A stretch of 64,000 nucleotides of DNA from Candidatus Uhrbacteria bacterium. Its GTDB lineage: Bacteria; Patescibacteriota; Patescibacteriia; JACQRZ01. The number at the start of each line of letters is the position of its first letter. Within the stretch, counting starts at the first letter, position 1. A program made the position numbers and the translations under genes. Positions 16,895 through 16,924 of the stretch are shown piece by piece. Location of the stretch: NCBI GenBank assembly GCA_016188385.1, contig JACPHV010000002.1, positions 24,116-88,115 on the forward strand, in the 5' to 3' direction. Below the pieces are notes generated by a model. The model was not told the DNA's origin. It did not search any database and saw nothing but the letters and a program-made list of their open reading frames with translations.

Positions 16895-16924
16895 TGATAT
16901 GATACCATATTAAGTATCATATCA
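16895..16924. promoter_or_regulatory. dif-like recombination site candidate: 12-6-12 imperfect palindrome TGATATGATACC-ATATTA-AGTATCATATCA, 33 bp upstream of the xer start codon.
   Basis: Arms are reverse complements with one inner mismatch. The 6-bp central region is AT-rich. It sits immediately upstream of the sole Xer recombinase gene, as difSL/difH do beside xerS/xerH. Confidence 0.4.

Follow-up and report, generated by a model that had tools for sequence, protein, structure and literature searches.

The subject of this analysis is a perfect palindrome just upstream of an Xer-type recombinase gene (xer) in a 64-kb stretch of contig JACPHV010000002.1 from a Candidatus Uhrbacteria bacterium, the whole of which is called the window below. 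With a probability of roughly 60%, we read the palindrome as the -10/start-site region of the xer promoter and not as a recombination site, the adjacent dif-like core as the site itself, and the low-GC island behind the core as an integron-like array. The reading draws on features observed directly, namely the anatomy of the sequence, its conservation, the covariation of hairpin stems, the position of the island junction and the pairing logic of the cassette ends. From these we infer that the palindrome would have promoter activity both ways, that Xer would bind at the locus, and that recombination would proceed through a single strand with replicative resolution.

An earlier note on this DNA had described the 30-mer at 16895-16924 as a dif-like palindrome of 12-6-12 geometry lying 33 bp upstream of the xer start. 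The 30-mer, TGATATGATACCATATTAAGTATCATATCA, is present as described and has no second copy in the window even when three mismatches are tolerated. It does lie immediately upstream of the gene, with 32 nt between it and the ATG (open reading frame (ORF) 16050..16862, minus strand). Perfect 11-bp inverted arms around a spacer of 4-10 bp occur three times in the window, against a mean of 0.14 in Markov-1 simulated windows; the other two such repeats are at 11612-11637 and 41360-41386. A scan of genomes and metagenomes for the palindrome provided three close relatives, L001, L083 and L088, with Xer identities of 90, 81 and 75%, respectively. When these were aligned with the window, the arms TGATATGATACCA and GTATCATATC were found to be invariant, while the intergenic DNA flanking the palindrome varied and contained indels. 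Position 16906 is an invariant C, and position 16913 is A, T, A or C. Because the twelfth pair is thus lost in the relatives, the conserved geometry is 11-8-11, and of the 12-6-12 parse only the inverted arms around a short central region are retained. The spacer is kept asymmetrically in these four genomes, with CCA[T/C]ATT on the xer side and variation in its middle. The palindrome was found at Xer identities from 75 to 100% (L001, L083, L088 and L093, the last being a Logan contig from an independent assembly of the same strain and the one other contig with an identical Xer in an exact-protein look-up). It is absent from relatives with Xer identity of 63% or less, which retain xer and a core of the type seen at 16932-16959. 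Next to xer in related genomes, the arms of the 30-mer are thus kept in close relatives, and at greater distance it is the other core that is conserved. Between the palindrome and the xer ATG, L001, L083 and L088 carry a GC-rich hairpin (CATTCCCG...CGGGAATC) which is absent in the window.

A promoter scan of the xer strand found TTGATA (16944-16939) and, after 17 bp, TATGAT (16921-16916) preceded by TG, with 10/12 matches. The cassette-proximal arm of the palindrome would thus be the extended -10 of a near-consensus sigma-70-type promoter for xer, with its -35 inside the core. The same -10 element and spacing occur in L083 and L088; L001 has CGATATGAT there and has lost the TG, and TT[G/C/T]ATA stands at an equal distance in all three. 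In a wider set of 21 sequences, 14 had an extended -10-like element on the xer strand, and 10 of these 14 had one on the opposite strand as well. Opposed pairs at the same position were seen in L009 (TGTTATAAT/TGTTATAAT), L012 (TGGTATAAT/TGTTATAAT), L016 (TGCTATAAT/TGTTATAAT) and L011 (TGCTATAAT/TGGTATAAT); these four genomes have TGnTATAAT on both strands, and only the third base, n, varies. The second arm of L017 is TGTTATAAA. In distant relatives the arms are separated by 6 to about 17 bp. Two promoters would account for the variable spacing and for changes confined to the free third base; neither a recombination core nor a mirrored operator would. The other arm may then fire transcription toward the cassettes, as does the cassette promoter (Pc) of integrons. 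Since the two predicted starts meet at the centre of the dyad, the two promoters would exclude each other. The -35 being part of the core, Xer on the core would cover it and so repress transcription of xer. Precedents are known from integrons, in which a palindromic LexA box lies across the -10 of the integrase promoter (Pint) and the Pc and Pint promoters are opposed (PMC8876359).

Several observations weigh against this assignment. The promoter scan found no -35 match for the outward promoter, and a terminator-like hairpin (17039-17064) precedes the first cassette ORF in the window. Within the clade of the window the arms are conserved over 11-13 nt, beyond the 9 nt that an extended -10 needs, and the test for independent change of the two arms is inapplicable there because the arms are identical in all four genomes. 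The palindrome is equated with the TGnTATAAT pairs found in more distant relatives on the strength of position, their homology being an assumption. In addition, an arm placed in outward orientation matches the consensus of the R' arms of the family (TTATRYGAAAT) at 8/11 positions, so that Xer may bind there to some extent.

The dif-like core begins 8 bp beyond the palindrome. The palindrome, an 18-nt linker and the sequence AAC[G/C]AG-TTAT can be aligned without indels in the window, L001, L083 and L088, and the distance from palindrome to core is fixed, with zero indels, in four genomes, whereas the xer-side flank contains large ones. Homology between the close relatives stops after the 11-bp right arm, TTATnnnnAAT. 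The contig of L093 terminates at ...AACGAGTT, that is at window position 16950 and exactly at the crossover triplet, and that of L001 at the end of the R' arm. The self-complementary start arm of cassette 1 begins at G|TT 16948. Taken together, the homology break, the end of L093 and the start of the cassette 1 arm place the junction of island and chromosome at G|TT 16948, outside the palindrome and 24 bp beyond its right-hand end. Contrary to what had been proposed, the palindrome is hence not the site of integration. Judged by sequence, the 28-bp core is probably the real recombination site, of which the chromosomal arm and AACGAG would stay in place; the right arm, TTATATGAAAT, and all DNA past G|TT 16948 would have arrived with the first cassette.

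In xer sense the consensus of the core is ATTTCRYMTAA-CTCGTT-TCTATGCGAAA, and it was found upstream of xer in most relatives from the candidate phyla radiation (CPR) for which upstream sequence was available. Its central region and right arm are conserved; the left arm (also given as RYYYAA) is variable and gives way to unrelated DNA. Arms were compared with those of the E. coli dif sequence (taken from PMC2731167). The right arm of the core in the window agrees with the XerD arm at 9/11 positions, and some R' arms agree with the XerD arm TTATGTTAAAT at 10/11, an example being TTATGTGAAAT, which at several sites is the left arm read as its reverse complement. TTCGCATAG is similar to the inner part, GCGCATAA, of the XerC arm. 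In the clade of the window the chromosomal arm of the core has diverged. The contigs of L001, L003, L004, L005, L011, L015, L017 and L093 all stop within about 350 nt upstream of xer; this recurrent assembly break is consistent with population heterogeneity or with repeats at the array.

Three other explanations of the palindrome were weighed. It could be the chromosomal dif at which a single Xer resolves dimers, adjoining xer as difSL and difH adjoin theirs. Inverted arms of 11 bp around an 8-bp spacer are within the range of tyrosine-recombinase cores, systems with a single recombinase keep dif beside xer (PMC5357621), and the arms are conserved in close relatives. However, a better dif-like site, shared across CPR classes and used for integration, lies only 8 bp away, and by direct comparison in dif orientation the arms match those of E. 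coli dif at 4-5/11 positions and the R arm of the system itself at 4/11. The palindrome is also missing at Xer identities of 63% or less though xer is kept, and the proposed 6-bp central region is not maintained in relatives. The GC skew, which had been expected to mark the replication terminus, has a positive value to the left (+0.064) as well as to the right (+0.125) of the locus, with no change of sign over the 64 kb. On these grounds a chromosomal dif at the palindrome is very improbable.

A symmetric operator fares better, but we still regard it as unlikely. A dimeric repressor would then cover the xer -10 and start site and put the recombinase under stress control, the second arm being its other half-site and not a promoter. 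The predicted -10 is indeed overlapped by the perfect dyad, whose 11-bp arms do not change in four genomes although the mid-spacer does, 12-6-12 dyads occupy this position in L009 and L012, and a palindromic repressor site on the -10 of an integrase promoter is known from integrons (PMC8876359). Yet the arms of distant relatives, spaced as described above, differ where a mirrored operator should match and all the same keep TG and TATAAT. Matches to the half-site 11-mer with up to two mismatches are at chance level in the 64 kb (30 against 20.4 expected) and are exact only at the two arms, and no regulator gene is adjacent in the window. Rather less likely than such an operator, in our judgement, are accessory Xer-binding sites of an attI-like platform, comparable to DR1 and DR2 of attI1, which would aid synapsis or orientation and repress the promoter as a side effect. 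The indel-free distance to the core would be explained in this way, as would the agreement of the arm TGATATGATAC with the R'-arm consensus at 8/11 positions, and a weak covariance-model match at 16919-16959 reads ATATCACAAAAC as an R''-like box (E ~1.2, not significant). The agreement at 8/11 requires the 'inner' ends to point outward, in which case no core can form, and it is marginal because of low complexity and the several registers tried; the dyads of distant relatives (TGTTATAATTAA) are moreover unlike their own core arms (~3/11). A further idea, that a larger attC-like hairpin with TCGTT...AACGA symmetry has the palindrome at its tip, was rejected: its fold in the window is weak (z = -1.8), and L001, L083 and L088 lack the outer pairing.

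The low-GC stretch does begin just to the right of the palindrome, with GC of 0.34-0.40 over 17-24 kb against ~0.48 outside. By its sequence features the island is an integron-like cassette array with attC-like hairpin sites and not one integrative mobile element exploiting Xer (IMEX). Of the IMEX-style integration previously suggested, what holds is the site-specific insertion of foreign DNA at a dif-like site next to xer. At the end of each cassette there would be an attC-like element that combines two inverted dif-like half-cores, their central regions pairing with each other. Folding of one strand of the element would restore a single duplex core interrupted by a 1x4 internal loop. Such attC-like elements from the window and from 12 other CPR-type loci were assembled into an alignment of 21 sites, with the layout R''(ACATCRYATAAC)-A-[11-bp stem]-...-[stem']-GAAC-R'(GTTATRYGAAAT) and the conserved inner motifs TATGCGGTT, TCACCCATATT and AACATCGCATA. 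The 11-bp stem is 97.8% paired, compensatory double changes occur in 9 of its 11 pairs, and the covariation score was matched by none of 500 shuffles and collapsed in slid controls. A covariance model built on these elements (CM R1) found 31 sites at E <= 1 in 1.2 Mb, including sites on which it had not been trained: site 3 of the window and sites in L006, L007, L013 and L021. No site was found in L023-L080 (~885 kb, mostly non-CPR relatives with at most 45% identity). A generic hairpin scanner had been discarded as non-discriminating after giving 505 matches in the same control loci. With the exception of those in L019 and L020, all model sites are upstream of xer, on the opposite strand and in arrays of 2-6, and in the relatives each cassette consists of one cassette-strand ORF followed by a site. 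In the window, the fold of site 1 has z = -4.5 on the top strand and -5.5 on the bottom strand, and an extended hairpin of 236 nt has z = -10.6. The bottom strand folds slightly better (-22.7 against -20.8 and -19.3 against -15.4 kcal/mol).

With an integron-type G|TT crossover, the end of each cassette should pair with its own start. The complementarity of the last 60 nt of a cassette to the first 60 nt of the same and of the next cassette was 30 vs 11 and 36 vs 6 in L006; own and next starts likewise scored 34 vs 6 in L007 and 26 vs 9 in L018. For the window the scores were 28 vs 22 (cassette 1) and 13 vs 7. The own start scored higher in most cassettes tested, and this holds for first cassettes abutting the xer-proximal core. 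Within a single site R'' and R' are only 66.7% paired. No copy of the palindrome or its arms was found at the cassette junctions or at the far edge of the island in the window. A second, degenerate copy had been anticipated at that edge; what stands there is a possible att-like remnant (27902-27987), which the covariance model does not detect.

The cassette genes are not common to the relatives: the island genes of the window are absent there, except for a distant Fic. Cassettes in the window are 1.1-4.9 kb long, several hold more than one gene, and no phage or replication genes were found in them among Pfam and NCBIfam matches. The recombinase itself is the only tyrosine recombinase that tblastn found in the 64-kb window, and its description as the sole Xer holds for that range. 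The protein scored 221.7 bits against NCBIfam XerA_Arch (cutoff 220) and 209.7 bits, in two stretches and below the cutoff of 265, against the integron-integrase model TIGR02249. It aligns continuously to the XerA structure 4A8E, whereas the alignment to IntI4 (2A3V) falls into two pieces and leaves ~44 aa without counterpart (query 178-202 vs chain 182-250), a gap that coincides with the location of the IntI-specific domain. Its closest relatives are from Candidatus Uhrbacteria and other CPR/Patescibacteria, and the xer-fmt-glycosyltransferase-truB side of the locus is syntenic in relatives. Smyshlyaev et al. (PMC8138268) place such proteins in the 'Cand' subgroup of Xer-related recombinases and leave arrays unmentioned. 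The coordinates of the features are collected in the table.

Table. Features of the xer locus and the adjoining island in the window
Feature	Position	Strand	Description
Palindrome	16895..16924	.	Arms TGATATGATAC / GTATCATATCA, spacer CATATTAA; geometry 11-8-11
Xer-type tyrosine recombinase, 270 aa	16050..16862	-	Pfam Phage_integrase and SAM_4; overlaps fmt (15109..16053) by 4 nt
Predicted xer promoter, extended -10 (TGaTATGAT)	16916..16924	-	TGATATGAT; cassette-proximal palindrome arm
Predicted xer promoter, -35 hexamer TTGATA	16939..16944	-	Inside the recombination core
Candidate Pc-like promoter, second extended -10 (TGaTATGAT)	16895..16903	+	Would face the cassettes
dif-like / attI-like core, 28 bp	16932..16959	+	CTACCGATATC-AACGAG-TTATATGAAAT; crossover G|TT 16948
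Cassette 1 start arm	16948..17021	+	Complementary to cassette 1 end 19095-19173; inverted repeats I1 79%, I3 92%
Terminator-like hairpin and T-run	17039..17064	+	Between core and first cassette ORF
attC-like site 1	19162..19264	+	R''-L''...L'-R'; CM R1 96.2 bits
attC-like site 2	24158..24260	+	CM R1 79.9 bits; DNA fold
attC-like site 3	26703..26811	+	CM R1 59.3 bits, E = 9e-11; untrained; R' box aberrant
Possible degenerate terminal site, low confidence	27902..27987	+	ATGTGTGTTAA ... CGCATACC-CTCCTTG-TTAACACAAAT; inverted repeat I4, 29 nt, 83%; half-site pattern match

The array shares with integrons a recombinase gene divergent from a co-oriented series of cassettes, an entry site beside that gene, and, by prediction, a promoter region between the integrase gene and attI. 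Also shared are cassette-borne imperfect inverted repeats of the form R''-L''...L'-R' with AAC/GTT triplets, stems whose sequence changes but whose pairs covary, and the G|TT crossover at which a cassette end pairs with its own start. Cassette content is likewise wholly different between relatives, and the cargo is of the toxin/antitoxin type (Fic, Doc, RelE-like). The system differs from integrons in its recombinase, which scores as XerA-type and has no IntI-specific insertion of ~44 aa, and in att elements with dif-like 11-bp R arms, an asymmetric spacer of 1 nt vs 4 nt, often long extensions of the stem and inner motifs that are more conserved than in classical attC. The window cassettes, with the length and the several multigene units noted above, and the host, a CPR bacterium, are further differences. 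Because the IntI-specific domain is absent, the system is not a canonical integron. Compared with class 1 and class 3 integrons, in which a LexA box covers Pint, there is again a palindrome over the predicted -10 of the recombinase gene, and the attI region would again have opposed promoters (PMC8876359). Like CTXphi-type IMEX, the system has an Xer-family enzyme that would act at a dif-like chromosomal core and incoming elements with two inverted dif-like half-cores, whose folding, as in attP(+) of CTXphi, would restore a single duplex site that bulges, unpaired, at its centre, and integrated units stand in tandem beside the site. Unlike those prophages, the cassettes are many short one-gene units without phage or replication genes, and a scan of viral contigs for the inner motifs gave 16 pattern matches of which the covariance model confirmed none. 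Self-contained mobile elements, as the IMEX class comprises, were not found; the units carry att sites but neither replication nor phage functions. To our knowledge, the sequence of the palindrome is unrelated to LexA boxes described so far.

XerS/difSL and XerH/difH likewise consist of one Xer-type gene with an adjacent dif-like site, and an arm of difH, AGTTATGAAAA, resembles the R' arm GTTATGTGAAAT of the present system (PMC5357621). Those sites are located at the replication terminus and have no cassette array, while here no skew switch is seen in the window and the site heads an array. The pdif modules of Acinetobacter plasmids are also gene modules bounded by Xer-type sites, but these are double-stranded XerC/D sites, in inverted pairs and on a plasmid, as opposed to hairpin sites in a one-directional array beside xer. 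No description of Xer-linked cassette arrays in CPR was found in the literature searched, whose coverage was incomplete, so that this is absence of evidence only.

As a wider generalization, which we put forward tentatively and at slightly less than even odds, many CPR lineages may carry a platform for gene capture, in which a single housekeeping-type Xer without the IntI-specific domain would integrate promoter-poor cassettes at its own xer-adjacent dif-like site by way of folded hairpin att elements, each composed of two inverted dif half-cores. Integron integrases are thought to have descended from Xer-like recombinases. If the generalization is true, the CPR platform would represent a living intermediate linking Xer/dif, CTX-type IMEX integration and integrons, and would show how cassette capture works, or began, without the IntI insertion. 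The passage of PMC9668308 that cites Messier and Roy (2001) regards the extra domain of IntI as necessary for attC recombination. The palindrome would in turn be a switch region where transcription of xer and of the cassettes compete, the core would be a concrete candidate for the dif of CPR, and the recurrent assembly break and the hypervariable, toxin-rich island in CPR genomes would be explained. Tools that recognize complete integrons by the IntI domain may let such arrays escape. The locus would also teach that a perfect dyad beside a recombinase gene can be promoter DNA, the real site being its less symmetric neighbour.

Some minor features of the islands and of individual relatives were also recorded. 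Cargo of the toxin type in the window comprises Fic, and Doc with a small upstream ORF (22898-24046, 26974-27555). A distant Fic homologue is encoded at 5229-5927 of L088, and in L013 one ORF, judged by eye, resembles Fic and a RelB/RelE-like pair is also present (5988-7064 and 4190-4669). Two genes of the window island look broken: an aminotransferase of class I/II is split into 17099..17371 and 17356..18246, and RhuM into 20582..21214 and 21242..21604. A second repeated hairpin stands directly after ORF stops at 19044-19097, 21608-21633, 22737-22762, 24050-24102 and 26520-26577. Its loop, (A/G)TTCACCCC, is conserved, and its stems vary from one copy to the next; at 21608 and 22737 only the left arm and loop are kept before the sequence diverges. 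The TTCACCC motif of this repeat recurs inside the attC-like sites, and the repeat could be another type of junction or a degenerate att site. The repeated intergenic elements gave no Rfam match at the gathering threshold or at E <= 1, and no tRNA or tmRNA genes were found. The array is followed by an ORF of 2150 aa (27920-34372) with many repeats of the motif GNVGIGT(T/S)SP..KL; its true start is probably further downstream, because the listed GTG start overlaps the hairpin at 27902-27987.

At the xer-proximal site of L010 (~1338-1380) the sequence GCGAACATATGTTCGC was seen, which we take to resemble a LexA box of the Gram-positive type, and GCGAA-N5-TTCGC occurs at the same xer-proximal place in many relatives. 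In L019, an attC-like site at 7794-7942 (55.8 bits) lies ~7 kb downstream of a partial xer at the contig end; the record, which bears the label Lysobacteraceae, is probably a CPR contig that was binned wrongly. L020, the Firmicute Acididesulfobacillus acetoxydans, has an Xer homologue with 47% identity and three attC-like hairpins in 11007-13096, for example ACTGCAGATAAC...GAAAC-GTTATCTGAAAC; spaced by ~1 kb, these lie on the xer strand downstream of the gene, and one of them scored 28.6 bits with the covariance model.

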